Assembly (NCBI GenBank): GCA_947628535.1
Contig: CANRAF010000001.1
Span: forward strand, 93,120-157,119
Direction of reading: 5' to 3'
DNA length: 64,000 nt
Origin: an uncultured Bacilli bacterium
Lineage (GTDB): Bacteria; Bacillota_I; Bacilli_A; RF39; UBA660
Below are positions 11,087-57,846 of the stretch, piece by piece. Position numbers and translations under genes: made by a program. Every line of letters begins with the position of its first letter. The stretch's first letter is position 1. The notes under the pieces were generated by a model that saw only the letters and a list, made by a program, of their open reading frames with translations, ran no database searches and was not told where the DNA came from.

Positions 11087-11707
11087 TTATTCTGCTTCTT
11101 TTGGTTTTATGACAACATGTCTTTCTTTGTTTTCTCCTTCACTTTCTGTATAAACATCTTTTGATTCAGATAAAATATTATGAACTATTCTTCTTTCAAA
11201 AGAATTCATAGGTTCTAGATGAGCCTCTACTTTAGTTCTAGCAACATCTTTAGCTGTATATTTTGCCATTTTTTCTATTCTAACTCTTCTCTTTGCTTTA
11301 TAATCATTAACGTCTATAATAAAACGATAATATGTATTTAATTCAGTATTTAACATTTGAGATGTAATATTTTGAAGAGCATCTATTGTTCGACCATTTT
11401 TGCCAATTAAAATTGAAACATCAGGTGCAATTAAGTTAAAAATAGGAGTTTCTTCTCTTGTTTTTGTTTCTATTTTGGCATTTATACCCATATTTTTTAC
11501 TATTTTTAAAATGTATTCTTTTATTTCTTTATTAAGTTCTTCTTTTGTTATAGCCTCTATTTCTGTTTTTTTATTAAATAGTGACTTTTTTATTTCTTTT
11601 TCAATTATTATTAATTCATCTTCTTTGGCATTTAAACCTTCTTTAGCATTTATTATTGCTTCTTCCTTTGTTTTTCCTGTAAATGTTTGTTTATTCATTT
11701 TTACCAC
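11087..11707 (-). CDS. khpB: Jag/KhpB RNA-binding protein (KH + R3H domains)
   Basis: C-terminal R3H motif (SFERRIVHNILSE). Conserved position downstream of yidC. Confidence 0.8.
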   Translation of the reverse strand: MVKMNKQTFTGKTKEEAIINAKEGLNAKEDELIIIEKEIKKSLFNKKTEIEAITKEELNKEIKEYILKIVKNMGINAKIETKTREETPIFNLIAPDVSILIGKNGRTIDALQNITSQMLNTELNTYYRFIIDVNDYKAKRRVRIEKMAKYTAKDVARTKVEAHLEPMNSFERRIVHNILSESKDVYTESEGENKERHVVIKPKEAE

Positions 11708-12620
11708 TCCTTTTTAAGGTGAAATTTTGGAATATTGTAAATAATGATGATGTTACCCAATAAAATGAAATTGCTGTTGGTAAAGTAAATGAGATAAATC
11801 CGATGAATACTGTCATTATTCTAGTCATTAATTTTTGTTGTTTTTCCATTTGCTCATTTGAAGCCATTGATGGATTTAATTTATAAGAGAAATAAGTAGC
11901 TGCAATTAGTATAACACATACAAATATATAATACCAATCACCTGCTGCCATAGCAGATCCTGGAGTTGTTCCCATATTTAATCCTATAAATGTTCCTTCA
12001 AAAATGGCTGGTACTCTATTTATTGCTTCCCAAAATGCCAAGAGAATTGGAAGTTGAATAAAAGCAAATAAGCAACCTGAAAGTGGTTTTATTTCGTATT
12101 TTTTATATACCAACATCATTTCCTGACCTTTTTTTGCCATTGATTCATTATCTGTTTTTCCTTCATATTTCTTTTCTATTCTATTAATTTCTGGTTGGGC
12201 TTTTTTCATATTTTCTGATTGAAGAAGAGTTTTTCTAGTCATAGGAAATAATGCAAATCTTATTATTAATGTAATTATTACTATTGATAAAGCTGGAGAT
12301 CCTACTAAAGATCCTATTTTTATTATGAAAAATGCTAAAGGTCTTACAAAAAATGTATTCCATAAGTTTTCATATTTGCCCACTATTTTCATATCATCGC
12401 AGTCTGGTAAGTCTTTAATATCTACTTTATTTTTTTCATATATTTTTAAAACATCTTTATCAGTTGGCTTACAAATTATGTTTTCTGTTATTGTTTGCCC
12501 TGTTTCTTCATTCTGAACTACTTTTCCATCTTTATCTTTTAATGTTTGAGTACATCCTGTTAAAGTTATTATAAGCATAAATATGACTAATACTTTTAAA
12601 ATTTTTGTTTTTTTATTCAT
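11691..12620 (-). CDS. yidC: Membrane protein insertase YidC/SpoIIIJ (lipoprotein form)
   Basis: Lipobox LTGC followed by the YidC TM core (PLSGCLFAFIQLPILLAFW...). Conserved position next to rnpA. Confidence 0.85.
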   Translation of the reverse strand: MNKKTKILKVLVIFMLIITLTGCTQTLKDKDGKVVQNEETGQTITENIICKPTDKDVLKIYEKNKVDIKDLPDCDDMKIVGKYENLWNTFFVRPLAFFIIKIGSLVGSPALSIVIITLIIRFALFPMTRKTLLQSENMKKAQPEINRIEKKYEGKTDNESMAKKGQEMMLVYKKYEIKPLSGCLFAFIQLPILLAFWEAINRVPAIFEGTFIGLNMGTTPGSAMAAGDWYYIFVCVILIAATYFSYKLNPSMASNEQMEKQQKLMTRIMTVFIGFISFTLPTAISFYWVTSSLFTIFQNFTLKRSGKNE

Positions 12621-12954
12621 TTTTATCTCCTTTTATTTTATTAAAAAGATATATTATCTCTTTTTCTAACTGTTTATAATCTAAATCAATAGTTTCTTTT
12701 TTACATATTATTATATATGTTTCATTTTGTTTATAAATATTTTCATTTTTATCTATTATATTTTTTATTCTTCTTTTTAATTTATTTCTTGTTACAGCAT
12801 TTGCTATGTTTTTGGCAAAAGTAATACCAAATTTTGGAATATTATCTTTATTTTGTTCTTTATTAATTATAAAATATTTACTACTATAGCCTTGTCTTTT
12901 TCTTATTATTCTATTGAAATCTTCTGATTTTTGGACGATATTTTTTTTTTTCAT
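12613..12954 (-). CDS. rnpA: RNase P protein component
   Basis: Basic 113-aa protein (MKKKNIVQKSEDFNRIIRKRQ...). Conserved position between rpmH and yidC. The likely start is the ATG at 12954, which lies inside an A11 run. Confidence 0.85.
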   Translation of the reverse strand: MKKKNIVQKSEDFNRIIRKRQGYSSKYFIINKEQNKDNIPKFGITFAKNIANAVTRNKLKRRIKNIIDKNENIYKQNETYIIICKKETIDLDYKQLEKEIIYLFNKIKGDKNE

Positions 12955-12998
12955 TTTTACCTCCATAATCAAAAATCCACTTTTGATAGTGGATTATT

Positions 12999-13124
12999 TT
13001 ATTTAGATAATCTTTTTCTTCCTTTTTTCCTTCTTTTATTTACTATTCCTGATTCCATACGAGAGAAGAAACCATGTTTTTTCTTCATTCTTCTATTATT
13101 TGGTTGATATGTACCTTTTTTCAC
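12999..13124 (-). CDS. rpmH: 50S ribosomal protein L34 (not in the ORF track; GTG start)
   Basis: Reverse-complement translation gives MKKGTYQPNNRRMKKKHGFFSRMESGIVNKRRKKGRKRLSK, which fits the L34 consensus. The RBS GGAGG lies 8 nt upstream. Confidence 0.85.
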   Translation of the reverse strand: MKKGTYQPNNRRMKKKHGFFSRMESGIVNKRRKKGRKRLSK

Positions 13125-13436
13125 TTCTTGCACCTCCAAACTTAATTAGTCGCTACTATTGTATATGAAAAGTAGGGTGGTTGTCAATATTTTTTTAGTT
13201 ATTAACAGAATAAACGTTAATTAACTTTTTTTATTTTAACAATTGTTAATAGTGTTATTAACTTTTTTCTTGAAATTTGTTAAAAACTATTTTATAGTAT
13301 GTATTTAAAGGAAAAAATATGTTGATAAGTTTGTTAATAAGTATGTTAATTAATATTTTAACTTTTCAAAAATTTAAAAATGTATTACAATTAAATTAAC
13401 TTGTTAATACTTTGTTTTTAGTGGGGAGATGGTATT
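13125..13436. promoter_or_regulatory. oriC, upstream DnaA-box cluster plus dnaA promoter region
   Basis: Repeated 9-mers TTATTAACA, or its reverse complement TGTTAATAA, at about 13199, 13245, 13255, 13332, 13345 and 13402. This is one mismatch from the canonical TTATNCACA box. The position between rpmH and dnaA is the standard oriC location. Confidence 0.6.
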
Positions 13437-14813
13437 ATGGATAATAATTTGTTATGGCAAAAAGTTTTAGATAATATTAGTAATATCGTTGACCCTTTGT
13501 CTTTTGATACTTGGTTCAAAAATATTGATTTTATAGATATCCAAAATCATTCAGTTAGATTAGTTATTCCAATAATGTGGTATAAAAGTCATATTGATAA
13601 TAATTATAAAGATATTATTTTAGAAAATTTTAATAATTTAATTAAAGATAATAATGTTGATAGTATTATATATATATTAAAAGATAATGTTGAAGATTTT
13701 TTAGAAAGTGAAAAGAGTAGTAATACTTCTTTGGAAGAAAAAAAAGAGAGTAATTATGTTAAAAATCATGTTTCTAATTTAAATAAAAATTATACTTTTG
13801 AAAGTTTTGTAGTAGGGGAGTCTAATAAATTTGCACAAGCTGCAGCTTTGGCAGTTGCTGAAAATCCTGGAACTATGTATAATCCTTTATTTATATATGG
13901 TAATAGTGGACTTGGTAAGACTCATTTGATGCATGCAATTGGAAATTATATTGAAAGTAAACTGCAAAAAAGAGTTTTATACGTTACTAGTGATGATTTT
14001 ATGAATGATTTTACAGGACTTGTTAGAAAAAATAGTAATGTTAATAACTTGGATTATGTTGATTTTTTCAAAAATAAGTATCGAAATATTGATGTTTTAC
14101 TTATAGATGATATCCAGTTTTTAGGAGGCGCAGAAAAATCACAACAAGAATTTTTCCATACTTTTAACAATTTATATAATGATAGTAAGCAAATTATTGT
14201 GTCATCTGATAGATCTCCTGAAGATTTAAAAGTTTTAGAAGATAGACTTAGAACACGTTTTGCCTGGGGTCTTCAGGTAGATATTAGTCCTCCTGATTAT
14301 AATTTAAAAGTTGCAATTATTAAGAATAAGTTAAAAAGAGAAGATATTGTTATAAATGAAGATGTTATATCTTTTATAGCTTCAAATATTGGTAATGATG
14401 TAAGACAACTTGAAGGTTCTATTACAAGACTTGTTGCTTATTCTGCAATCATGTGTGTTACTGATATTACACTTGATTTTGCAATGGAGGCATTAAAAGA
14501 TTTTACAAAGAAAGATAGTGTAACTGACCAAAATAATATAAGAAGAATTCAAAAAAGCGTTGCTAATTTCTATAAAATATCTTTTGAGGATATGAAATCA
14601 AAGAAAAGAACTCCAAATCTTGCTATTCCAAGGCAGGTTGCTATGTATTTATGCAGAAAACTTACTGATGAGTCATTTGAAAGAATAGGTATTGAGTTTT
14701 CTGGTAAAAATCATGCTACAGTAATACATGCTTGTAATAAAATTGAAAAAGAAATGAAAATAAATAAAGATCTAAATAATGCTATTGCTGATATTGAAAA
14801 GCAATTAACATAA
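13437..14813 (+). CDS. dnaA: Chromosomal replication initiator DnaA
   Basis: AAA+ Walker A (GNSGLGKTHLMHAIG) and a C-terminal DNA-binding domain. Confidence 0.95.
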   Translation: MDNNLLWQKVLDNISNIVDPLSFDTWFKNIDFIDIQNHSVRLVIPIMWYKSHIDNNYKDIILENFNNLIKDNNVDSIIYILKDNVEDFLESEKSSNTSLEEKKESNYVKNHVSNLNKNYTFESFVVGESNKFAQAAALAVAENPGTMYNPLFIYGNSGLGKTHLMHAIGNYIESKLQKRVLYVTSDDFMNDFTGLVRKNSNVNNLDYVDFFKNKYRNIDVLLIDDIQFLGGAEKSQQEFFHTFNNLYNDSKQIIVSSDRSPEDLKVLEDRLRTRFAWGLQVDISPPDYNLKVAIIKNKLKREDIVINEDVISFIASNIGNDVRQLEGSITRLVAYSAIMCVTDITLDFAMEALKDFTKKDSVTDQNNIRRIQKSVANFYKISFEDMKSKKRTPNLAIPRQVAMYLCRKLTDESFERIGIEFSGKNHATVIHACNKIEKEMKINKDLNNAIADIEKQLT

Positions 14814-14964
14814 ATTTGTTAAATCCGTTAATATAAATTAACAAATAAAAAAGATATTATCTGTTGATATTAAAGTATTTTTTTAGATATTAACAATGTT
14901 AACAGTAATAATATAAATAATAAATAATTATTAAAAAAATAAAATAAAGAAAGTAGGTAATAAA
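14814..14964. promoter_or_regulatory. oriC second part: dnaA-dnaN intergenic DnaA boxes plus AT-rich unwinding element
   Basis: TATTAACAA and TGTTAACAG at 14887-14905 and ATTAACAAA at 14836. An A/T-only stretch of about 27 nt (aaataataaataattattaaaaaaataaaataaa) lies upstream of dnaN. Confidence 0.5.
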
Positions 14965-16083
14965 ATGAAGTTAAAAATAAAAAGAACAATTTTGTTAGAA
15001 GCACTTAATAATGTATCTAAAGCTATATCTAGTAAAAATATTATTCCAATTTTATCTGGTATTAAATTTGAACTTTTTAAAGATAAGTTAGTTTTAACTG
15101 CTTCTGATAATGATATAACTATTCAAACAGTTATTAACAAAAATGATGATTTAGAAATAAATAGTACAGGTAGTATTGTCATAAAGGGTAAATATATATT
15201 AGATATAATTAGAAAATTAGAAACAGAATTTATTAATATAGAAATTGTTGATGATCATAAGATTATGATTTTTACTGATAATAGTGAATTTAATTTAAAT
15301 GGTGTTGATATTAAAGAATATCCAGATATTAACTTAGACCTATCAAATGATTACATTAAGATGAAAACAGGTGATTTTAAAACAATGATTTCACAAACAA
15401 ATTATGCATGTTCTTTAGATGAAGCTAGGGTAGTGTTAACAGGAGTTAATATAAAGATAAATAATAATAATTTAGAATGCAGTGCAACTGATTCTTATAG
15501 ACTTGCCCTTAGAAAATATCGTCTTAAGGAAAAAGTGAGTAATGATATTGATATTATTATTCCAAGTAAGAATTTAAGTGAACTTTTAAAAGTAATTGGT
15601 CCTGCTGATGATGAAGCAATAGAGGTTCATTTATTTAGTAATAAAGTAATTTTCAAATTTAAAGATATTATTTTTCAATCAAGACTTATAAATGGTACTT
15701 ATCCAAATACTAAAAATCTTATTCCAAATGAATCTTTATTTGATTTAACTGTTAATAATAATGAATTTTATAATATGGTTGATCGTGCAAGTATATTAAA
15801 TAATGATACAGATAATAATATAATTACTTTAGAACTTAAAAATAAAGTTTTAAAAATTACTTCTATGTCTCTTGAAATAGGTAAAGTAGAAGAAAAAATG
15901 AATGTTGATAGTAATGAAAATATAAAAATATCTTTTAGTGCTAAATATATGATGGATGCTCTTAGGACTATAAAAAGTGATAATGTTACATTAACATTTG
16001 TAGGTGAGATAAAACCAATTCTTTTAAAAAGCGATGAAAACGATGATTTAACTTGTTTAATTTTACCTATTAGAACATATTAA
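14965..16083 (+). CDS. dnaN: DNA polymerase III beta sliding clamp
   Basis: 372 aa with three-domain clamp architecture. Sits immediately downstream of dnaA. Confidence 0.95.
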   Translation: MKLKIKRTILLEALNNVSKAISSKNIIPILSGIKFELFKDKLVLTASDNDITIQTVINKNDDLEINSTGSIVIKGKYILDIIRKLETEFINIEIVDDHKIMIFTDNSEFNLNGVDIKEYPDINLDLSNDYIKMKTGDFKTMISQTNYACSLDEARVVLTGVNIKINNNNLECSATDSYRLALRKYRLKEKVSNDIDIIIPSKNLSELLKVIGPADDEAIEVHLFSNKVIFKFKDIIFQSRLINGTYPNTKNLIPNESLFDLTVNNNEFYNMVDRASILNNDTDNNIITLELKNKVLKITSMSLEIGKVEEKMNVDSNENIKISFSAKYMMDALRTIKSDNVTLTFVGEIKPILLKSDENDDLTCLILPIRTY

Positions 16084-35900: not shown

Positions 35901-35929
35901 TTGATTTTTGCGTTTGAATATTGTACTAT
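35901..35929 (+). promoter_or_regulatory. Sigma-A-like promoter of TasA-like module 1
   Basis: TTGATT, 17 nt, TACTAT. The same promoter is duplicated at 37557-37585. Confidence 0.5.
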
Positions 35930-35956
35930 TTATATATATAGTAAAGGAGGCTAACA

Positions 35957-36640
35957 ATGGAAATTAAAGAGGATAATCAAAGAAAATTAATACTATCAGT
36001 TTTAGGAGTTGCAATATTAGTAGTTGCAGTAATTGGAATATCATTTGCAATATATCAAGCTACATTTAGTCAAAATGATGCTAATAGTATTCAAACAGGA
36101 ACTATTACTGTTAGTTATACAGAACCTAGTAATGCTATTAGTATTTCTGATGCAATGCCAATGGCTGAAAAAACAGCTCTAAAACAAGATAATAATAAAT
36201 TTGAATTTACTGTTACTACTGGTGCAAGCGGAAGCCTTACAGTACCATATGATATTAGTATTACGAAAATTGAAGAAAGTGATAATAATTTGAATGATGA
36301 AAATGTTAGAGTTTATTTAACAAAAGAGGATGAAACCCCAGTTGACTTAAGTACAAAAGAAGAGTCAAATGCTTTATACAAATCGTCAAATTCAAAATCA
36401 AGGCTTATTTCTGAATTAAATGAATATAGTGGGCGTAAGGAAGAAAAAGCAAAACTTTTATATAGCGCACAAGATGTGTTTAATGGTGATAATTCTGAAA
36501 CAACAAAATCTACAAAGTATGTTCTTAGAATGTGGGTAGATAAGAATTATCCAATGGATAATGGTACTGTTTCAAAAACATATAAAGCTAAAGTAAATGT
36601 TGATTCAGTAGTAACTCCACTTGGAACAAAAACAGAATAA
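35957..36640 (+). CDS. TasA/camelysin-family secreted protein, subtype A, copy 1 (SipW-cognate signal)
   Basis: Signal: K-rich n-region, h-region, then GISFA|IYQ. The mature N-terminus (DANSIQTGTITVSYTEPSNAISISDAMP) aligns with TasA (DATFASGTLDLSAKENSASVNLSNLKP). The C-terminal motif is YVLRMWVDKNY...KTYKAKVNVD. Confidence 0.75.
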   Translation: MEIKEDNQRKLILSVLGVAILVVAVIGISFAIYQATFSQNDANSIQTGTITVSYTEPSNAISISDAMPMAEKTALKQDNNKFEFTVTTGASGSLTVPYDISITKIEESDNNLNDENVRVYLTKEDETPVDLSTKEESNALYKSSNSKSRLISELNEYSGRKEEKAKLLYSAQDVFNGDNSETTKSTKYVLRMWVDKNYPMDNGTVSKTYKAKVNVDSVVTPLGTKTE

Positions 36641-36670
36641 TAGATAATAATGTTATGGAAGGAGAAAACT

Positions 36671-37435
36671 ATGGAAAATAATATAAATGACGATAACAAT
36701 AAAAAAACATTAATATTATCAATTTTGGGAATACTTGTTTTGATAATTGCTGTAGTTGGTGTTTCATTTGCAATGTACAAATTTACAGGAACAGGGACTC
36801 AAGAAAATGTAATTACAACAGGTACTGTCAATATGAGTTTTGATAATGAAGAAGGTAATAATATTTCTCTTACTAACGAATATCCCATGACTGATGAATA
36901 TGCAATACAAAGTAAGGATACTCATAAATCAGAATTTACTATAACTGCTAATTTGTCTGTAGAATCATCAGTTGCTATAGCTTATAGTATAGGAATTGAT
37001 GATCAAAATATAGAAGAAGGGGAAACTTTAAAGAAAGAATATATCAAAATAGCTTTACTTGATGACGATAATAATATATTAGTTGGGACTCCAAATGGAC
37101 TAGATAGTCAAGAATTAACAGGAGGAACTTTAATATCTGAACTTGAATCTCAACAAGATAATTTAATAAATAAATATATGCTTGCTCATAAACTTATTAC
37201 AGGAAGTAATACTTCGGATAAATATACTCTTTATGCATGGGTTGCAGACACTTATAATTTACCTACTGGTAATGACAATAAAGATTCAACTCTTGATGAA
37301 AATGTTATTAAGACTGAAGAAGATGATAAAACAAAGCAAGAAAAGACAACAAAATCTGAAACTTTTAAATTTAAATTAATAGTAAAAGCAAAGCAATTAC
37401 TTGATGAAGAAGAATATGAAGAATATCAACAATAA
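36671..37435 (+). CDS. TasA/camelysin-family secreted protein, subtype B, copy 1
   Basis: Signal ...GVSFA|MYKFTGTG. C-terminal motif YTLYAWVADTYN...ETFKFKLIVKAKQ resembles TasA FSFEATQ. The RBS-supported start is at 36671; the ORF track starts at 36650. Confidence 0.75.
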   Translation: MENNINDDNNKKTLILSILGILVLIIAVVGVSFAMYKFTGTGTQENVITTGTVNMSFDNEEGNNISLTNEYPMTDEYAIQSKDTHKSEFTITANLSVESSVAIAYSIGIDDQNIEEGETLKKEYIKIALLDDDNNILVGTPNGLDSQELTGGTLISELESQQDNLINKYMLAHKLITGSNTSDKYTLYAWVADTYNLPTGNDNKDSTLDENVIKTEEDDKTKQEKTTKSETFKFKLIVKAKQLLDEEEYEEYQQ

Positions 37436-37556
37436 GGAACATTTTTATATTTTAATAAAAAGTAGATAAAGTGAATATTATTTTTTACTTTATACTTCTT
37501 TTTTTATTAATAATTTTAGTATTATTGAAATTGTAAGGTTAAAAAAATATAAAATA

Positions 37557-37585
37557 TTGATTTTTATTCATTTATATTGTACTAT
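37557..37585 (+). promoter_or_regulatory. Sigma-A-like promoter of TasA-like module 2 (duplicate)
   Basis: TTGATT, 17 nt, TACTAT. The flanking sequence is near-identical to the module-1 promoter. Confidence 0.5.
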
Positions 37586-37607
37586 TGGTATAGTAAGGAG
37601 AATAGTG

Positions 37608-38267
37608 ATGGAAATAAAAGAAAATGGTCAAAAAAAATTATTGTTATCAATTTTGGGAGTGGCTATATTAGTTATTGCGGTAATTGGGATATCATTTGCA
37701 ATATATCAAACTACGTTTGATCAAGCAACTGCTAATAGCATTAAAACAGGGACTATTACTGTTAGTTATACAGAACCAAGTAATGCAATTGATATTGAAG
37801 ATGCAATGCCTATGAGTGAAAAAACAGCTTTAGAGACATTAAAGACAAGTAATAAAACATTTGATTTTACAGTTACTACTAAAGCAAGTGGGGAATTGAC
37901 TGTACCATATGAAATTAGCATTACAAAAGTGAGTGGTAGTTCAACTTTAGATGAGCAATATGTAAGAGTTTATTTAGAAAAAAATAATGGACCTGTTACT
38001 CTAATTGGTGAAAACGCAGTTCAAAAGGAAGGATTATATTCGAATCTCATTTCTAATTTAAAGGATTCAACGAAACGTCAAGATGGAACTAAACTTTTAT
38101 ATAGCACTAGTGATACTTTTGATAGTGAAAATAGTACAGCAATAAATACTACATATAAACTTATAATGTGGTTGGATGAAAACTATCAAATGGACAATGA
38201 GACTCAAACAAAAACATATAAAGCCAAGGTAAATGTTGATTCGGCTGTAACTCCAATCGCACAATAA
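37608..38267 (+). CDS. TasA/camelysin-family secreted protein, subtype A, copy 2
   Basis: Paralog of 35957-36640, with the same signal and GISFA|IYQ site. Start at 37608 after RBS GGAG. The ORF-track start at 37557 falls inside the promoter. Confidence 0.75.
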   Translation: MEIKENGQKKLLLSILGVAILVIAVIGISFAIYQTTFDQATANSIKTGTITVSYTEPSNAIDIEDAMPMSEKTALETLKTSNKTFDFTVTTKASGELTVPYEISITKVSGSSTLDEQYVRVYLEKNNGPVTLIGENAVQKEGLYSNLISNLKDSTKRQDGTKLLYSTSDTFDSENSTAINTTYKLIMWLDENYQMDNETQTKTYKAKVNVDSAVTPIAQ

Positions 38268-38305
38268 TAAAAAAATTTTTAAATATATGATGAAAGGAGA
38301 TAAGT

Positions 38306-39046
38306 ATGGAGAATAGTAATAATAAGAAAGTATTAATGTTGTCAATTTTAGGAATAATTGTGTTAATAATTGCAATTGTTGGTGTTTCATTTGCAATGTA
38401 TACTTTTTCGGGAACTGGAACTAAGACAAATGTAATTACAACTGGAACAGTGAATATGAGCTTTGAAAATGGTAAAAATGTTATTAATGTTGATAATCAA
38501 TATCCTATGGAAGATTCAGTGGCAATAACAAAAGAAGAAAATCAAACAAAATTTAGTGTTACTGCAAATTGGGGTTCTGCTCCATTAGCTATAAAATATG
38601 ATATTGGGATTTTGACCCCTTTTACTGAAGGAGATACTTTAAAGGAAAAACATATCAAGATAGCTTTGGTGGATGGTTCAGGGAACATATTGGTCGGGAC
38701 TCAAGAACCAGCTAAAGAAATAGAAGCAGAAAAGCATAATTTGACAGGTGGAACTTTGATGTCAGAACTTAAAAGCCAAAGTGGAGATTTAATAAAAGAA
38801 TATTGGCTTGCTAACGGACTTATTACAAATAGTGGACAAAAGGATGAATATACCCTTTATGCGTGGGTAGATAAGGATTATAATTTGCCTTATGGAGAAA
38901 GCAATGATGATTCTAGTGCTAATGTAGAAGCTCCTAGTACTACTGATGGAAATGATCAAAGTGTTAAACACGAAAAGACTACAAAAAGTGAAACTTTTAG
39001 TTTTAAAATTAAAGTGCAAGCTGAACAATTAATTGACGAAGACTAA
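38306..39046 (+). CDS. TasA/camelysin-family secreted protein, subtype B, copy 2
   Basis: Paralog of 36671-37435 with GVSFA|MYTFSGTG and a C-terminal ETFSFKIKVQAEQ. Confidence 0.75.
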   Translation: MENSNNKKVLMLSILGIIVLIIAIVGVSFAMYTFSGTGTKTNVITTGTVNMSFENGKNVINVDNQYPMEDSVAITKEENQTKFSVTANWGSAPLAIKYDIGILTPFTEGDTLKEKHIKIALVDGSGNILVGTQEPAKEIEAEKHNLTGGTLMSELKSQSGDLIKEYWLANGLITNSGQKDEYTLYAWVDKDYNLPYGESNDDSSANVEAPSTTDGNDQSVKHEKTTKSETFSFKIKVQAEQLIDED

Positions 39047-39199
39047 TAATAGTTTATATTTATAAAAAGTAGATAGAAAAAACATTATGAAAAATTTCGA
39101 TCTACTTTTTTTTAAATAATAATTAATGTCTAATTTTTCCTTTTAAAATATATTATTTTGTGGTAATATATTATTATAAGTTTATAGTAGGTGTTGCTT

Positions 39200-40297
39200 A
39201 TGAATGATGATAAAGAAGAATTAAATATTCAAGAAGAGAAAATAGCAGATGAAGTAGCGGATGAAATACTAACTGTTGAGAATGATGAATATGAACAAAG
39301 ATCTTTTTGGTTTATTGTTTTATTTCTTTTTTGTTTGATATTTTTAGTTTCATCTCTTTCATTTGCAGTGTTTGATACTTATTATAATGGTGAAAGTAAC
39401 AATGTGATTACTGTTGACGTTGATGAAAATGTAACTCAATGTGACAAGAACTGTGATACAGATAATGATGGTATATGTAATTATAACTGTGATATGAATA
39501 ATGATGGTATATGCGATAAAAATTGTGACAATGATAGTGATGGAAAGTGTGACGAAAATTGTGATGATTCTTATAAAAAACCTAGCAATAATTATTATAG
39601 TGTTTGTAAAACTAATTGTGATGTAAATAATAATGGTATATGTAATTATAATTGTGATACAAATAACGATGGTAACTGTGATAAAAACTGCGATACCAAC
39701 AATGATGGAGTATGTGATAAACATTGTGATAGCTCATTTCAAAAGCCAGAATATCCTAATAATCAAGATGGGAATGGTGATGAAGGAAATGATGTGGAAT
39801 CTGGTACTAAGCCACAACCAAGTGAATCAGAAAAACCTGCTTCAGGATCAATATTATTTTCGTTTAATGAAGAATCAAATTATATAAATATGACTGGTGT
39901 ATATCCTACTTCTGATACTATTGGTAAGAAGCTTGTTGGGGATAGACAATATTTTGATTTTAGTATTTCTGCTTCAATGAATAAAAATAAAGGAAATTTA
40001 GTATATGAAATTTCACTTGTACCAATTAGTGAAAATACAATTCCTGAAAATATGGTTAGGGTTTATTTGACTGAAAATGGAAAGGATGTTTCGATACTTG
40101 ATAAAACTATAAATAATTATAGTGAATTACCTAATAGTAAATATAGAAATGGTGGTAAGGTAATTTATAGCAAAAAAATAAGTAAAAATTATAATGGAGA
40201 ATATGTATTTAGAATGTGGCTTTCTTCAAAAGCGCCTGTTTATAATTCTTCAAAGAAATTTGGTGTAAAAATAGCTGTTAATGCATACTACAAATAG
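39200..40297 (+). CDS. Chimeric secreted protein: acidic N-tail, SipW-type signal, two blocks of Cys-containing TSP3-like Ca-binding repeats, and a TasA-like C-terminal half
   Basis: Signal ...SSLSFA|VFDTYY. About seven 12-aa repeats (NYNCDTNNDGNC / DKNCDTNNDGVC; D-x-[DN]-x-D-G loops with two Cys each) at nt 39437-39730. The C-terminus (MVRVYLTENGKDVS...YVFRMWLSSKAP...KKFGVKIAVNA) is paralogous to the TasA-like proteins. Confidence 0.7.
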   Translation: MNDDKEELNIQEEKIADEVADEILTVENDEYEQRSFWFIVLFLFCLIFLVSSLSFAVFDTYYNGESNNVITVDVDENVTQCDKNCDTDNDGICNYNCDMNNDGICDKNCDNDSDGKCDENCDDSYKKPSNNYYSVCKTNCDVNNNGICNYNCDTNNDGNCDKNCDTNNDGVCDKHCDSSFQKPEYPNNQDGNGDEGNDVESGTKPQPSESEKPASGSILFSFNEESNYINMTGVYPTSDTIGKKLVGDRQYFDFSISASMNKNKGNLVYEISLVPISENTIPENMVRVYLTENGKDVSILDKTINNYSELPNSKYRNGGKVIYSKKISKNYNGEYVFRMWLSSKAPVYNSSKKFGVKIAVNAYYK

Positions 40298-40300
40298 TTA

Positions 40301-40954
40301 TTGAAAGGATTGGTTGGTGTGAAAAACATAATTAATAGAATTTTTAAGATTATTTCATCTGCTATTTTTGTTTTGTTAGTGCTTCTAATTATATTAATTA
40401 TTTTTTATATTGTTCGAGTAAATTTTATGGCTAGTAATGACAAATTAGGCGATGTTAGAATCAACTTTTATACTATTTTAACTCAAAGTATGTATCCCAC
40501 TATTAAAGCGGGAGATATAGTTATTACTTATAAATCATTAGATGGAAAATATAATAATGGGGATGTTATCACTTTTGTTTCAGATAATAATGGAGGTATA
40601 ACTGTAACCCATAGAATTGTTGAAGTTTTTAATGTTAATAACAATTATTCTTATAAGACTAAGGGAGATAATAATAATGCTCCTGATAATGATGTTATTT
40701 CTGAAGATCATGTACTGGGGAAAGTTGTTATGAAAATTCCTAAGGTTGGGTATATACAACAATTTTTAGTTAGTAAAACTGGATGGATTGCTGCTGTTAT
40801 ATTACCATGTTTAGGAATAGTTATTTATGATATACTTAAATTGTTTAGACTTGCTGCGAGAAAAGGTAAGAATCTTATTGTTCAAGATAAAAGAACAGAA
40901 GATGCTAGAAAAAGATTAAAAGAGGTGTATGAAGATGAAAGTGAGGAAGAGTGA
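40301..40954 (+). CDS. sipW: Signal peptidase I, SipW type (S26B, archaeal/ER-type)
   Basis: Catalytic Ser box (TILTQSMYPTIKAGDIV) and His box (VTHRIVEV) with a single N-terminal TM helix. The likely start is the GTG at 40319, after RBS AAAGGA. Confidence 0.8.
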   Translation: MKGLVGVKNIINRIFKIISSAIFVLLVLLIILIIFYIVRVNFMASNDKLGDVRINFYTILTQSMYPTIKAGDIVITYKSLDGKYNNGDVITFVSDNNGGITVTHRIVEVFNVNNNYSYKTKGDNNNAPDNDVISEDHVLGKVVMKIPKVGYIQQFLVSKTGWIAAVILPCLGIVIYDILKLFRLAARKGKNLIVQDKRTEDARKRLKEVYEDESEEE

Positions 40955-41570
40955 TTTTGATGTTAGTACAGATGATTTAATGTTTAAGGAAGAAGTTCCA
41001 GAGGGAGATCTTTATAGCAAAGTTAATGTAGATGATAGAATTTTTGAAGATAAGGCCGTTAGGAAGAAGAGAACAACATATTTAATTGTTTTAGCTATTA
41101 TTTTAATTATTTGTTCTATTCTTTGTGCTATTTTTGGGTTTATTTATTTAGATAAACAACTTAAAGATAGAATAAATAATCCAGTGGTAGAAAAATATGA
41201 TTTGTTTGTTGGTCATTCTAATAGTACTTATGGTGGAGAAATTTCTTCATTTGCTAAATATAATAGTGAAAACAGTGCTTTTTCATATAATTTTTATGTA
41301 AGCAATAACAATCCAGTTGATCTTGATTACTCTATTTTACTTGCTAATTTGGATTATGATAATAGTAAAATTGATATGACACTTATACAGTATAGTTTAC
41401 TAAAAGATAATGAAGTAGTAAAAACAGGTTATTTAGAAGATGAAAAAGATAATTTGTTATATGAAGATACTATTAAATCTAATTTTACTGATAATTATAC
41501 TGTTAAACTATGGAGTGATAAACTTTCTAAAAACAACAAATTTAACTTTAAAATCAATATAGGGGTATAA
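40929..41570 (+). CDS. Membrane/secreted protein with a 48-aa cytoplasmic N-tail, SipW-like cleavage motif and a TasA-like C-terminal motif
   Basis: Overlaps the sipW 3' end (translational coupling). TM/signal ...SILCA|IFGF. C-terminal YTVKLWSDKLSKNNKFNFKINIGV resembles the Y.L..W.D...K motif of the paralogs. Confidence 0.6.
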   Translation: MKMKVRKSDFDVSTDDLMFKEEVPEGDLYSKVNVDDRIFEDKAVRKKRTTYLIVLAIILIICSILCAIFGFIYLDKQLKDRINNPVVEKYDLFVGHSNSTYGGEISSFAKYNSENSAFSYNFYVSNNNPVDLDYSILLANLDYDNSKIDMTLIQYSLLKDNEVVKTGYLEDEKDNLLYEDTIKSNFTDNYTVKLWSDKLSKNNKFNFKINIGV

Positions 41571-41581
41571 GGAGGAAAAAT

Positions 41582-42268
41582 ATGAAGGCATTTTTTATAG
41601 ATTTTTTAACATTATTAGCTAATTGTATTTTAATAGTTTGTCTTTCTCTTATGTCGTTTTTCCTTATCGCAAATTTATATCATGCTAGAGAGATTTCTTA
41701 TGGATATAGTGCTGATTTAAAAAATGATTCTAAGTATAAAGACTATAAAAAAACAATAAATGATTCATTTAATAAGATGAAAAATATTAATTATGATAAT
41801 CGTAAGAATGAATTAACTGCTAAACCTATATATCAATATTACTCTGATTGTGTGGAATCACTTAATAATGGTACATTTGCCAATTTTGAAAATGATGATA
41901 ATATTACAGCATTAGATATTTACAATGCTAATAATGAGATTTTAAATGATTATAATAACAAATGTATTTTTTATCTTCCTTATAGTATAGAAACTATTTA
42001 TAAAGATAAAAAGCAAAATGTTTCGTTTAATAATGTTTTATCTTTAGTTGAGGAAAGAGGTAATATTATTTCATCAAATGCTAAGTATTTGACAGACTCA
42101 GAACTTGGCAATAGTTCTTATACATTTACTACCGATACTTCGAGAGTTAGTATTTACAATAAAATTAAAGGTGAACTTGATCTTACTATGAATAATTATG
42201 AATTGATATCATTGATTCTTAGTGATATATCGGATTGGTATGTTTTAGAGTTTGGAGGAAATAATTAA
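41582..42268 (+). CDS. Hypothetical secreted/membrane-anchored protein (228 aa)
   Basis: N-terminal hydrophobic segment (LANCILIVCLSLMSFFLIANLYHA). RBS GGAGGAAAAATATG. No recognisable domain. Confidence 0.5.
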   Translation: MKAFFIDFLTLLANCILIVCLSLMSFFLIANLYHAREISYGYSADLKNDSKYKDYKKTINDSFNKMKNINYDNRKNELTAKPIYQYYSDCVESLNNGTFANFENDDNITALDIYNANNEILNDYNNKCIFYLPYSIETIYKDKKQNVSFNNVLSLVEERGNIISSNAKYLTDSELGNSSYTFTTDTSRVSIYNKIKGELDLTMNNYELISLILSDISDWYVLEFGGNN

Positions 42269-42879
42269 TGAAAGATATTTTATGTAAAATTTTGGGATTT
42301 TTAAAATATATTCTGTTAATTGCTGCTTTTGGATTAGTATTTTATGGAATAATTGTAACATATGGTAGACTTGAAAAGCCTTTAGTGGAATCTATACCAG
42401 TATTTATCCCTTTTGGAGTTGTTTTTCTACTTTTTATAATTACTTTAATAATGAGAGCAAAAACAGTTAGTAAGAATTTACTTTTTAATTTTGTTTCAGT
42501 ATTTGTATTTGTAGTAACTATTATAATATGTTTAAGAGCTATGTTCGATACTAATATGATTTTGTTTCATAAATATTCTATAAATTATAATCCCGCATTT
42601 TTTTCTGATAATTTATCTGCTATAGAGGCTATGATATATATGCTTGGAGTTGCAAATTTAATTTTGTTGGTTTGTGATTTGCTTAATAAGGATAATAAGA
42701 GCAGAAAAAATAATTCTAAAAGTACGGTTTCTTACAATGACAATAAAACTTATGCTAAACAGGAAAAAAAAGAAAAGAATAATGATAAAGATTTTTTTGA
42801 AAAGAAGAAAGATATTTTAGAAGATAATAATATTGATAAGGATACAGAAGAAGTTTTAGAAACAAAAGATAAGGATTGA
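42268..42879 (+). CDS. Hypothetical polytopic membrane protein with a K/E-rich C-terminal tail
   Basis: Start overlaps the upstream stop (TAATG). Four predicted TM helices. Tail KNNSKSTVSYNDNKTYAKQEKKEKNNDKDFFEKKKD. Confidence 0.5.
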   Translation: MKDILCKILGFLKYILLIAAFGLVFYGIIVTYGRLEKPLVESIPVFIPFGVVFLLFIITLIMRAKTVSKNLLFNFVSVFVFVVTIIICLRAMFDTNMILFHKYSINYNPAFFSDNLSAIEAMIYMLGVANLILLVCDLLNKDNKSRKNNSKSTVSYNDNKTYAKQEKKEKNNDKDFFEKKKDILEDNNIDKDTEEVLETKDKD

Positions 42880-42900
42880 TTTTCTTATCTTTTATTATTT
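42866..42900 (+). terminator. Putative terminator ending the sipW operon
   Basis: AAGATAAGG-(10 nt loop)-CTTATCTT inverted repeat followed by a T-rich tract. Confidence 0.4.
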
Positions 42901-42942
42901 GTAATTATAATATTTTTTTGTTAAACTAATGTTGGTGATTTA

Positions 42943-54881: not shown

Positions 54882-57846
54882 ATGAAGAAAATAATGTCTG
54901 GGGGGGGGGTTATATAAAAGAAAAATAAAATATATAACATCTCTAATAATAACAGTAGTAGGACTACTGTCTTTAATGGTGGGAACAAGTTATGCAATAT
55001 TAAAAGGAGAAGCAGAAAGTAAAGAACAGCAAGTAATAAAAGCAGGAAGTGTAGAGTTAGAACTAAAAGAATATTATGAAAGTATGAATAAAGGAATAGA
55101 AGTAAAAGAAGATAAAGATGGATTACTTGGAGAACCATATAAATTTAGTATAAAGAACATAGGAAGTGAAGTAGCAAAATATGATGTAAAACTAGTTAAT
55201 GAAGCAACAGAAAATAAAATACTAGATAAATATATAAAGATAGGTCTAGAAGTCAATGGAGAAGAAATGGGACCAATGAATATAGAAGAAGTAAAGAAAA
55301 TAATAGATAGTAATATAATAAATGAGAAAGAGATAATAAACTATAGTTTAAGGATATGGTTAGATAAGGAACATGAAGAAGAGATATTAAAAATAGAAGA
55401 TGGAAAAGCAATATTGAAAATAGAGGTAGAAGCGAAACAAAGAGAATATGAAGAGAACTTAGATAAAAGTGGGGCAAATAAACCAGTGTTATCAGATTCA
55501 ATGATACCAGTATATTATGATAGTAAGAAAGATGTATGGAAGAAAGCAGACAAAGAAAATAAAGATTATGAATACAAATGGTATGATTACAATAATAAGA
55601 TGTGGGCGAATAGTGTAACATATGATCATACAAAGTTAGCAAATGAAAGCAAAACAAAAATAGAAGGAAAGACATTCAATGGAACAAGTGATTATATAAA
55701 TATGGGATATGCAAATAAAGAATTAGGAAATCAAATAACACTAGTTGCAAGATTTAAGGCAAAGGAAATTAAGAATGCAGTAATAGTTGGAAATGTACAA
55801 CATGCAGGAAGTAATATATATTTAGATAACAATAATTACATAAAGTTTGATATATATTCACAAGAGAATGAACATTATGTTGGAGCAGATTCAAAAATAG
55901 TAGCGGAACCAGACAAATGGTATACAGTGGTAGGAACATATGATGGAGTAACTATGAAGTTATATGTTAATGGAGAATTAAAAGGAACAAAAGAAACAAC
56001 AGATAAAATAAAACCATCACCAATGCCAATAACAATAGGAGCAAATCCAGAGACTAATAATAAATATACAGATTATTTCAGTGGAACAATAAGTGATGCA
56101 TTAGTAATAAAAGATGCAATAGATGAAAATACAATAAAGAAGAATTATTCAGGAGAAGTAAATCATATAGATAACAAAAATCAATTATTCTATTCAAAAT
56201 TTGATAATAAAATAGGAAATATAAATGAAGCACAATATACAAATGAGGGAATGACATTTGATGGAGAAAATGACTATGTAAATGTAGGACTTGCTAATTA
56301 TGACTTTGGAAATAATATAACCCTTGCAGCAAGATTTAAAACAAATTTGTCAAACAATACTTCAAGTCAAGATATAATATCAAACATAGATTCATCAGGA
56401 GCATATATAAATGTGAATTCAAGCAATGTTATAGATTTTGCAGTATATTCACAAATAGAACAAAAATATATCCATACTGATATTACAAAGAAAGCAGATA
56501 AAAATGAGTGGTACACAGTAGTAGGAACATATGACGGAAAAAACATGAGAATATATGTAAATGGAGAGTTAGAAGGTACAGCAGAACTAACAGATGCGAT
56601 AAAGAAAACATATATTCAATATTTAATAGGGGCAAATCCGAATAGAGATAAACATGGAGAATACTTTAACGGAACAATAAGTGATGCATTGATAATGAAG
56701 AATGCATTAACAGACGATGAGGCAATTAAATTAAGTAGAGAAGATAATTTTGATGATTATTCAAAAGATGAAAATACGCTTGTATATAATAATTTAAGAA
56801 GTTACGAATCAAGAGCAAATGGAACAGAAATGCCAATGGATATGATATCAACTATGCAGGTGTGGATACCAAGATTTAATGCAATAACTCCATCAAATTA
56901 TAATGGAGGAACTACGGATAATCCAGGACCAATAAATGTAACATTAAAGAATTCAAATCAAAAATCTTTAGATGCCTTTAACTTTGGAGGAAAAGAACTT
57001 TCTGGATTTTGGGTAGGAAAATTTGAAAATAGCGCACCAAATATCCCAACAAAAGAAGATAATACAGAACAAATAGTAATAGTAAAACCAGATGTACAAT
57101 CATGGCATTGGAGCAATATAAAAACATTCTTTAATTCAATGCAACATATGACTAGTACTGGTAATATATATGGCTTTGATAAAAATACAAGTACAGCCTT
57201 AGATACCCATATGATGAAGAATAGAGAATGGGGAGCAGTAGCATATTTAACGCATAGTAAATATGGATTGTGTAAAAATGCAAAATGTAAAGAAATATAT
57301 AAAAATAATAGTGGTGTTAATTATAATGTTAATAGTAACATTATTAACATAAATCCTCCTTATACAGGAAGAAGTAGTGGAGCACCATCAACAGATAATG
57401 ATTATACTCAATATGGGACATATTCATATGATGGATATAAATTAAATGGCAATAATAAAACATCAGAAAGAGACATAAGTAAAGTAGCAAGTACAACAGG
57501 GAATATATATGGAATATATGATATGAGTGGTGGTTTATGGGAATTTGTAATGGGTAACTATAATAATACAATAGGGCAATCAGGATTTACAGAAGAAGAG
57601 TATAATAGTATAAAAGAAAAATATGTAGATGTATATACTGGAACATCATATGATGGTCATGCTTTAAGTGAAACCGCTGGTTGGTATAATGACTATAAGA
57701 AATTCGTTATCTCTAATTATTCTTGGTTTAATCGTGGTGGCGCATATGTAAATAATAATATAGTTGGTTTGTTTTTCTTTTCTAACATTGGTGGAAATGC
57801 TCACAGGTATGGTGCCTCCCGGCTAATTATCTCAAATATAAAATAA
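54882..57846 (+). CDS. Large secreted surface protein: SipW-type signal, TasA-like N-domain, two LamG/ConA-like domains and an FGE-sulfatase (SUMF1)-like C-domain. Frame-shifted at a poly-G tract (phase-OFF as sequenced).
   Basis: The ATG at 54882 with RBS AAAGGAGTG encodes MKKIMS-(G10). With 9 or 12 G it fuses to the 54976 ORF, giving MKKIMSGGGLYKRKIKYITSLIITVVGLLSLMVGTSYA|ILKGE. TasA-like motif YSLRIWLDKEHEE...ILKIEVEAKQ. LamG blocks at about 55670-56160 and 56250-56730 (WYTVVGTYDG...LYVNGEL). FGE-like motifs REWGAVAYL and IYDMSGGLWEF lie toward the C-terminus (about 57220-57545). Confidence 0.7.
54900..54909 (+). repeat. Homopolymeric G10 tract (candidate slipped-strand phase-variation switch)
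   Basis: Ten consecutive G in a roughly 27% GC window. It lies between the signal-peptide start codon and the body of the 956-aa ORF. A -1 or +2 change in length restores the frame. Confidence 0.85.

Follow-up and report, generated by a model that had tools for sequence, protein, structure and literature searches.

What does a bacterium make with a gene cluster that sets a dedicated signal peptidase among a series of paralogous, leader-bearing proteins that no curated profile recognises? The question is raised by a locus of an uncultured Bacilli bacterium (GTDB lineage Bacteria; Bacillota_I; Bacilli_A; RF39; UBA660), from which a stretch of 64,000 nucleotides (nt; GenBank assembly GCA_947628535.1, contig CANRAF010000001.1, forward-strand positions 93,120 to 157,119), hereafter the window, was analysed. 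Nine genes on the + strand, A1, B1, A2, B2, C, sipW, D, E and F, fill positions 35957-42879. We favour, with moderate confidence, the reading that the product of this locus is a heteropolymeric surface fibre or fibrous matrix, SipW-dependent and sortase-independent, of the TasA/CalY-like kind; an earlier note on this DNA, made from its letters alone, had proposed a multi-subunit extracellular structure, which stands as a plausible reading. The host belongs to the uncultured gut Bacilli orders related to Mycoplasmatales; these are frequent in the guts of humans and animals, none of their members has been cultured and their surfaces are scarcely known. The cluster is a candidate for their main surface structure, combining an unannotated protein family, a fixed chromosomal address, a conserved promoter, two membrane partners and apparent phase variation.

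A leader-bearing protein family and its signal peptidase

Alignments identify the products of A1, A2, B1, B2, C and D, together with the N-terminus of a large protein encoded elsewhere in the window (987 amino acids, aa, in one reading of its frame), as a single homologous family of leader-bearing proteins with a predicted beta-sandwich. Types A and B match each other at BLAST E = 1e-24 to 1e-28, and the C-terminal domain of C matches A1 at E = 2e-10. By hhalign, an alignment of D matches that of A with a probability of 97.8% (E = 6.5e-13, 168 columns), and the N-terminus of the 987-aa protein matches the A family with a probability of 70% (E = 4e-5). Each of the seven proteins has one N-terminal hydrophobic segment. 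In A1 this is a transmembrane (TM) leader at residues 11-29, followed by the predicted cleavage site GISFA/IYQ (the slash marks the bond cleaved) and a beta-sandwich; the B1 leader ends in GVSFA/MYK. The AlphaFold2 (AF2) model of A1 (pLDDT, the predicted local distance difference test, 78) has residues 30-46 disordered, followed by eight strands.

A six-frame translation of the 64 kb contains six copies of the motif S-[FYC]-A-[IMV]-[YFL], each at the end of a family leader. The sites in the window read SFA/IY, SFA/MY and SFA/VF, while that of D, LCA/IF, does not conform. The earlier note had recognised a single paralogous, leader-bearing family with a TasA-like cleavage context, and this is confirmed, except that the context is not common to all members, since L-C-A/I-F in D breaks the S-x-A pattern. 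The leaders of A, B and C have small residues at -3 and -1 and an aromatic residue at P2'; that of the 987-aa protein has small residues at -3 and -1 and Leu at P2'. Among 176 relatives the consensus is V-A-V-V-G-V-S-F-A/A-F-S-Y-S-K-T-G-x-K-V-N-T-I-T-T-G-T-I-T-M-S-Y, with SFA/AF in 103 and F or Y at P2' in 149. Few parts of the family are as conserved as the mature N-terminal segment, yet it is disordered in the monomer model of A1; in A and B the N- and C-terminal parts are retained and the middle varies.

About 320 database homologue clusters of A1 carry no Pfam domain, two being labelled 'hypothetical protein' and none having an informative name, and the window's own family proteins are unnamed in NCBI and ENA. 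None of A, B, C, D, E and F has a Pfam or NCBIfam match above curated cut-offs. Sequence-profile searches of the PDB with the A, D and C alignments returned chance matches only and did not find TasA. The locus differs from those of sortase-assembled Gram-positive pili in that its subunits lack LPxTG (LP.[TSA]G is present in none of ten proteins examined) and no sortase-like Pfam match lies within 35.2-42.9 kb.

SipW, by its profile score and catalytic boxes, is a genuine endoplasmic reticulum (ER)/archaeal-type signal peptidase I, as had been proposed from the letters alone. It scores 103.7 bits against TIGR02228 (cut-off 51.85), and its boxes SMYPT, THRI and KGDNNNAPD align with SM.P, HR[IV] and KGDNN..D of human SEC11A/SEC11C, the catalytic-box residues being Ser63, His104, Asp123 and Asp129. 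TM segments are predicted at its N- and C-terminus. Against NF046067, the Bacillus SipW equivalog, it scores 106 bits, below the cut-off of 190; judged by these scores it is of the same type as Bacillus SipW and not a close orthologue.

The earlier note had also spoken of a 'TasA domain', a label that no curated profile supports. Neither PF12389 (Peptidase_M73) nor NF046066 matches A1, A2, B1, B2, C or D at E <= 1; among 54 relatives five match PF12389 (best E 0.037) and nine match NF046066 (best E 0.0027), all below the cut-offs. At the level of curated profiles the paralogs are thus placed outside the TasA/camelysin family, a placement that the note had itself held up as evidence against its reading. 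The family may be a remote homologue of TasA. Against a 38-sequence TasA alignment (Bacillaceae only; TasA sequence checked against PDB 8aur, whose mature chain begins at A28), the family gave an hhalign probability of 29% (P = 5.7e-4, 65 columns), and a 408-sequence family profile gave 24% (P = 8e-4, 78 columns). With the mature parts only, the score was 20.6 (P = 0.03), the maximum among 20 column-shuffled controls being 14.5. The match takes in only the leader and the first 50-80 residues of the mature protein, in the expected register: the cleavage site, then N..[AT]G[TS][LI].[LM], then a turn that contains P, and then F.[FL].N.G; for comparison, the TasA leader reads GGTWA/AFND...FASGTLDLS. 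The aromatic P2' residue is given as the reason why TasA needs SipW rather than a LepB-type peptidase (PMC10269814), and TasA residues 28-38, the first 11 of the mature protein, are the donor strand that links subunits and drive polymerisation (PMC9674648). A Foldseek search of the PDB with A1 gave no match at E <= 0.001; the weak matches include carbohydrate-binding modules (CBM32) and viral jelly rolls.

Table 1. Positions of genes and sequence features in the window; the starts of B1, A2 and C were corrected from ribosome-binding sites
Feature	Position	Strand	Description
Promoter P1 (A1-B1 unit)	35901-35929	+	TTGATT 35901-35906, 17-nt spacer, TACTAT 35924-35929; read from sequence
A1	35957-36640	+	227 aa, subunit type A
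B1	36671-37435	+	254 aa, subunit type B; start corrected to the ATG 6 nt past a GGAAGGAG ribosome-binding site
Terminator hairpin T1 with U-run	37452-37510	+	RNA fold -14.4 kcal/mol, z = -3.59
Promoter P2 (A2-B2 unit)	37557-37585	+	TTGATT, 17-nt spacer, TACTAT; read from sequence
A2	37608-38267	+	219 aa; start corrected to ATG 37608
B2	38306-39046	+	246 aa
Terminator hairpin T2 with U-run	39059-39115	+	inverted repeat; fold -15.2 kcal/mol, z = -3.77
Putative promoter P3 (C-sipW-D-E-F unit)	39141-39169	+	extended -10 TGgTAATAT 39161-39169; read from sequence
C	39200-40297	+	365 aa; start corrected
C linker repeats	39449-39721	+	six 12-aa repeats N-C-D-x-[DN]-[NS]-[DN]-G-x-C-x-x, residues 84-174
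sipW	40301-40954	+	217 aa; start codon uncertain
D	40929-41570	+	213 aa, divergent family member
E	41582-42268	+	228 aa, single-pass membrane protein
F	42268-42879	+	203 aa, four-TM membrane protein
Large family member	54882-57846	+	987 aa if the G10 tract were G9; from ATG 54882

A proposed fibre and the readings that compete with it

In the model that we propose, SipW would cleave A, B and C after S-F-A and free the conserved N-terminal segment of ~15 residues, disordered in the monomer model. Acting as a donor strand in the manner of TasA, this segment would then enter the beta-sandwich of the following subunit, so that A and B, as the major subunits, would form a heteropolymer. C has a 38-aa cytoplasmic N-region, a TM segment at residues 39-57, the site SLSFA/VFD, a putative N-terminal strand, a long linker and a beta-domain (~215-362). 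With the same N-terminal segment as A and B and a long acidic, Cys-rich linker before its body, it could be a specialised subunit, whether tip, initiator or cross-linker. The linker sits exactly between the conserved N-terminal segment and the first core strand and is absent from the more distant C homologues. Its repeats fall into two blocks that arose by internal duplication of ~129 nt, have no Pfam match and are found in none of eleven aligned C homologues; they resemble DxDxDG-type calcium loops with paired cysteines and are possibly calcium-binding and disulfide-rich. A separate observation concerns residues 1-38 of C (39200-39315), whose cytoplasmic motif VADxVADEIL is nearly invariant in the C subfamily (L001-L074 in our numbering of related loci). 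Such conservation would be unexpected, since this segment would be discarded if SipW cleaves C.

D has a 45-aa cytoplasmic N-extension, a TM segment at residues 52-70 and the non-canonical site SILCA/IFG. Because a large residue replaces the small one at -3 in the D proteins of the window's sub-clade, D is probably an uncleaved membrane anchor: with its cleavage site lost in this lineage and a cytoplasmic extension acquired, it would remain in the membrane and hold the fibre there. E is predicted to be a single-pass protein with an extracytoplasmic helical bundle, in whose alignment N31, H34 and C128 are invariant and C90 and W219 are present in at least 90% of sequences. F has four TM segments, a variable charged tail and, besides the start Met, the invariant residues R34, K37, P48, R90, D94 and Y124, four of which are charged; by hydropathy they are predicted to face outward. 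The F family comprises 86 clusters among 1.84 billion representatives, and F scores 23.7 bits against DUF6057, below the cut-off of 29.8. E and F would be lineage-specific assembly or anchoring factors, analogous and not homologous to B. subtilis TapA and B. cereus CapP: such helpers are precedented by TapA (PMC9674648) and CapP (bioRxiv 10.1101/2024.02.27.582368), to neither of which the accessory proteins show homology. The variable middles of A and B, a copy number that differs between species and the poly-G tracts of the large fusion proteins described below could reflect immune or phage pressure on an exposed structure.

Several points weigh against a fibre of this kind. The curated TasA/camelysin profiles do not recognise the family, most of the score behind the 24-29% hhalign probability comes from the leader, and the fold search is empty at E <= 0.001, with carbohydrate-binding modules and viral jelly rolls among its weak matches. 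We infer assembly, donor-strand insertion included, in its entirety; the roles suggested for C, D, E and F are drawn from topology and conservation, and E matches generic helical bundles only. Finally, the 55 related loci compared below were picked through A, so that their uniformity does not show the cluster to be present in every genome of the lineage and its universality there is not established.

It is possible, if doubtful, that the substrates of SipW are instead surface proteins that do not polymerise, glycan-binding adhesins or a coat, whose paralogs provide antigenic or ligand diversity. CBM32 and other carbohydrate-binding jelly rolls among the weak Foldseek matches, the lectin-like Laminin_G_3 domains of the large family member, and the variable middles and copy number of the subunits all suit such proteins, as do the marginal similarity to TasA and the inferred character of polymerisation. 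However, the first ~25 mature residues are the most conserved and yet disordered in the model, which is expected of an inter-subunit strand and would be difficult to account for in a monomeric lectin, and the best structural match is the fibre form of TasA. The fixed bicistronic pairing of A with B and the clade-conserved partners D, E and F suggest an assembly machine, and no conserved ligand-site signature was seen.

We think it rather unlikely that the locus represents a new class of Gram-positive filament proper to the uncultured, reduced-genome gut Bacilli ('Tenericutes'). In it, A and B would be non-TasA subunits cleaved by SipW; D as an uncleaved anchor, E as a helical-bundle factor and F as a four-TM protein would form a membrane platform for polymerisation; and lectin-fusion subunits switched by poly-G tracts would be a phase-variable cap, the whole serving as the main adhesion organelle in a lineage for which an absence of sortases is reported. 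That the locus builds something associated with the spore, be it a coat layer or an appendage, is improbable. TasA was first described as spore-associated, the neighbouring genes include yabG (spore-coat protease family), spoVT, spoVG and yabP, and seven of 54 relatives faintly match the Enas endospore-appendage family. These matches (PF13157; E 0.12 or worse, with E = 0.67 for A1) are far under threshold, however, and amount to no profile match, and the neighbourhood is a conserved Bacillota gene order near the replication origin; the B. subtilis map, we take it, has the same origin-proximal order without this cluster. The TTGATT -35 element and 17-nt spacer are sigma-A-like, with no recognisable forespore or mother-cell sigma pattern (weak evidence), and phase-variable adhesin fusions would better suit vegetative host interaction. 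We likewise give little credence to a family unrelated to TasA that converged on SipW processing and is assembled in some other way through E and F, for example by a membrane-embedded polymerisation platform: the mature-domain match to TasA reaches just P = 0.03, Pfam and NCBIfam do not recognise the family, and E and F, which are kept with sipW, have no counterpart in TasA, CalY or archaeal Abp systems, but, beginning at the cleavage site and continuing through N..[AT]G[TS][LI].[LM] and F.[FL].N.G, the alignment with TasA is co-linear and keeps its register, and association with SipW is common to both.

The SipW-dependent fibre that we favour can be set beside several known systems. The cluster resembles tapA-sipW-tasA of B. 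subtilis in carrying a dedicated ER/archaeal-type signal peptidase beside its substrates, and these resemble TasA in their leader, with small -3 and -1 residues and an aromatic P2', followed by N..[AT]G[TS][LI].[LM] and a predicted beta-sandwich body. It differs in that the subunits fall outside PF12389 and NF046066, in having four to seven paralogs where B. subtilis has one major subunit, in the absence of TapA and the presence of the conserved membrane proteins E and F, and in its fixed yabE-ksgA position across the clade; sinR/sinI were not seen nearby, although no systematic search for them was made. Two paralogous subunits, for which heteropili are proposed, a lineage-specific accessory factor predicted to be largely alpha-helical and split transcription units are shared with the sipW-tasA/capP (bc1280)/calY system of B. 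cereus (bioRxiv 10.1101/2024.02.27.582368). CapP is secreted, whereas E, which has no DUF4047 match, is anchored in the membrane, and F is polytopic; the subunits, unlike the B. cereus proteins TasA and CalY, lie outside PF12389.

The archaeal AbpA/AbpB, cannulae and AbpX offer a further likeness, as their divergent TasA-like jelly-roll subunits polymerise by donor-strand complementation; the larger Abp partner is proposed as initiator or adhesin, and calcium has a role in some relatives (PMC9245690). AbpA reaches 97% HHpred probability to PF12389 (PMC9245690), whereas the family described here reaches 24-29% by hhalign against the Bacillaceae TasA alignment, and archaeal Abp loci have no dedicated signal peptidase (PMC9245690), whereas this cluster has SipW. 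In C. perfringens a SipW-linked protein is a biofilm matrix protein in a Clostridium; PMC11580942 treats SipW extensively and reports type IV pilus-associated secretion and intermolecular isopeptide bonds for that protein, two features that were not seen here, although no search was aimed at them. FimG and CS20 pilins are among the weak structural matches, and chaperone-usher pili, in which beta-sandwich subunits are joined by N-terminal donor strands, are a mechanistic analogue only: these Gram-negative systems employ a periplasmic chaperone and an outer-membrane usher, show no homology to the cluster and have no such genes here. If the route by TasA is correct, SipW-dependent donor-strand fibres would reach well beyond PF12389; the family proteins would also be obvious candidates for work on host interaction or on phage receptors.

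Transcription units and the duplicated A-B module

Each bicistronic A-B unit is driven by a conserved sigma-A-like promoter and ended by a hairpin terminator. The gap from A to B is 30-38 nt (30 nt between A1 and B1) and is free of terminators, and both modules end in a AAAAGTAGAT... hairpin with a U-run whose fold beats shuffled controls. A consensus scan missed both promoters, which match 8 of 12 consensus positions, and both terminators, whose stems are too AT-rich; promoters and terminators were therefore judged by conservation across species and by folding z-scores. In L001-L008, L014 and L053 the promoter element ATATTGATTTTT-N-ATATTGTACTAT-TGTTATAGTAAAGGAGG recurs 5' of the subunit gene that comes first; in L001-L014 and L053 the block cttttaaa...tttgtggta(a/g)tata is conserved 5' of C, which leads us to infer a promoter there. 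Both the A promoter and the block 5' of C are kept across species whose MetS proteins are 60-84% identical. A position profile of 187 upstream regions, anchored on the ribosome-binding site, was blurred by variable spacing and defined no motif.

The two modules are copies of one another. Blocks of 71-82% DNA identity recur ~1.61-1.66 kb apart, and at the protein level identity is 61% between A1 and A2, 54% between B1 and B2 and 27-33% between A and B, in keeping with the alternating A1, B1, A2, B2 subtypes that had been read from the sequence. Paired copies differ most in the middle of the proteins, where identity is 30-50%, and keep 70-90% over the first ~100 residues and the last strands. 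A1 and A2 are mutual best matches at 61%, and the nearest other species stand at 54-57%. A recent duplication is rejected because the identity between paralogs (61% and 54%) scarcely exceeds that to the nearest other species. The earlier note had described a recent tandem duplication of a whole transcription unit with near-identical promoters and a hairpin after each A-B pair; the duplication of the unit with promoter, A-B pair and hairpin is real but, judging from these identities, old. The promoters are identical in their hexamers and spacing, and there alone is identity complete: the 52-nt blocks around P1 (35885-35936) and P2 (37541-37592) are 77% identical.

In more distant loci (for example L015-L079) a conserved hairpin, AAAGTGTCTAATCTCTGACACTTTTTT, is present in ~80 of 237 regions upstream of subunit genes. 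Its recurrence between A-like genes suggests that there each A-like gene is transcribed as a separate unit, in contrast to the A-B pairs in the window's sub-clade.

The downstream genes form the coupled operon that had been predicted, with overlapping or near-abutting frames: the gap from C to sipW is 3 nt and that from D to E 11 nt, while sipW runs into D by 26 nt and E into F by 1 nt. The 63-nt gap between F and ksgA (42880-42942) contains no hairpin, its fold being no better than those of shuffled sequences. As no hairpin terminator follows F, the C-sipW-D-E-F unit may read into ksgA-yabG.

A fixed chromosomal address and a lectin-domain relative

Upstream of the cluster lie, in order, recR, holB, PSP1, pth, mfd, spoVT, metS, tatD (PF01026) and a yabE-like gene, which matches no Pfam model and is so named for its position only; downstream lie ksgA (PF00398), yabG (PF05582), veg, spoVG and yabP. 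Gene calls and Pfam matches on the flanks uphold the synteny and nine-gene layout described in the earlier note, and the interval between the yabE-like gene and ksgA contains no rnmV-like gene. The note's view that accessory genes had been inserted into this interval is not sustained, as the cluster occupies the same site in 55 related genomes and its guanine-plus-cytosine (GC) content, 26-31%, is that of the flanking DNA. A horizontal-transfer island is rejected on the same grounds, GC like that of the flanks and conserved synteny. The cluster is not an accessory insertion and, over the genomes compared, is an ancestral, lineage-wide feature.

A scan of species-representative genomes by similarity to the A family gave 79 loci, 55 with both flanks captured, and in all 55 the cluster lies between metS-tatD-(yabE) and ksgA-yabG-veg-spoVG. 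The genomes, sampled from human, chicken, rabbit, goat and rumen, are labelled as uncultured gut Bacilli, "Tenericutes", "Mycoplasma sp. CAG:611", "Clostridium sp. CAG:451" and Candidatus Onthousia; we take CAG-611 and CAG-451 to fall in GTDB order RF39. The uncultured orders RFN20 and ML615J-28 are reported to be sortase-free, and a reduced display of surface proteins has been inferred for them (PMC10868615). Across the loci, 1-7 subunit genes precede sipW, and a C-type gene is present in 15. Wherever sipW is held, sipW, E and F remain together, F following E in all but one locus, and in most a D-like gene comes after sipW. A, B, D and E, ~45-55% identical to their closest relatives, evolve faster than SipW (69-77%), F (59-71%) or YabG (80-85%), and the same is true of A and B beside the neighbouring housekeeping genes.

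Family members seem to be drawn to this neighbourhood. L024 (16007-17656) and L033 (7931-8671) have extra large family-domain genes between veg and spoVG, and in L028, a complete chromosome (OZ006970.1), ~4.7 kb of other DNA (11358-16061) lies between two A-like genes inside the cluster.

The large family member has the leader VGTSYA/ILK, the N-terminal family domain and, by Pfam, Laminin_G_3 and an FGE-sulfatase-like domain. Its 5' coding region contains a G10 tract (54900-54909), the only run of at least 7 G or C in the 64 kb (~25% GC). With G10 the frame meets a stop after 11 codons; with G9 it would be uninterrupted for 987 aa. The tract suggests phase variation, making the protein a candidate phase-variable adhesin in which G10 is either a slipped-strand switch or a homopolymer error of the assembly. 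In the genome CANQWY01 ('Lapin-012 bin84'; L027, L034, L037, L042, L046, L058, L060 and L078), which has more than 10 scattered family genes, ten G8-G10 tracts were found, all in leader-coding sequence, nine of them in one context, ...LILTIVLM-GGG-VTYA/KYSKS..., of ~550-aa paralogs of the large member. In this context G8 or G11 would put the frame on; of three tracts with a leader start, G9 and G10 are off and G8 is on. Where such a poly-G gene is seen whole (L042), it is directly followed by an A-like gene of ~200 aa. Fusions of the family domain with lectin domains that carry poly-G tracts are thus present in two genomes, with A-like genes after them. The CANQWY01 arrangement fits phase-variable cassettes of adhesin plus subunit, with homopolymer assembly error as the alternative.

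An Rfam search found no RNA family in the locus; its sole match in the window is the bacterial small signal recognition particle (SRP) RNA (RF00169, 22700-22797, 61.8 bits).

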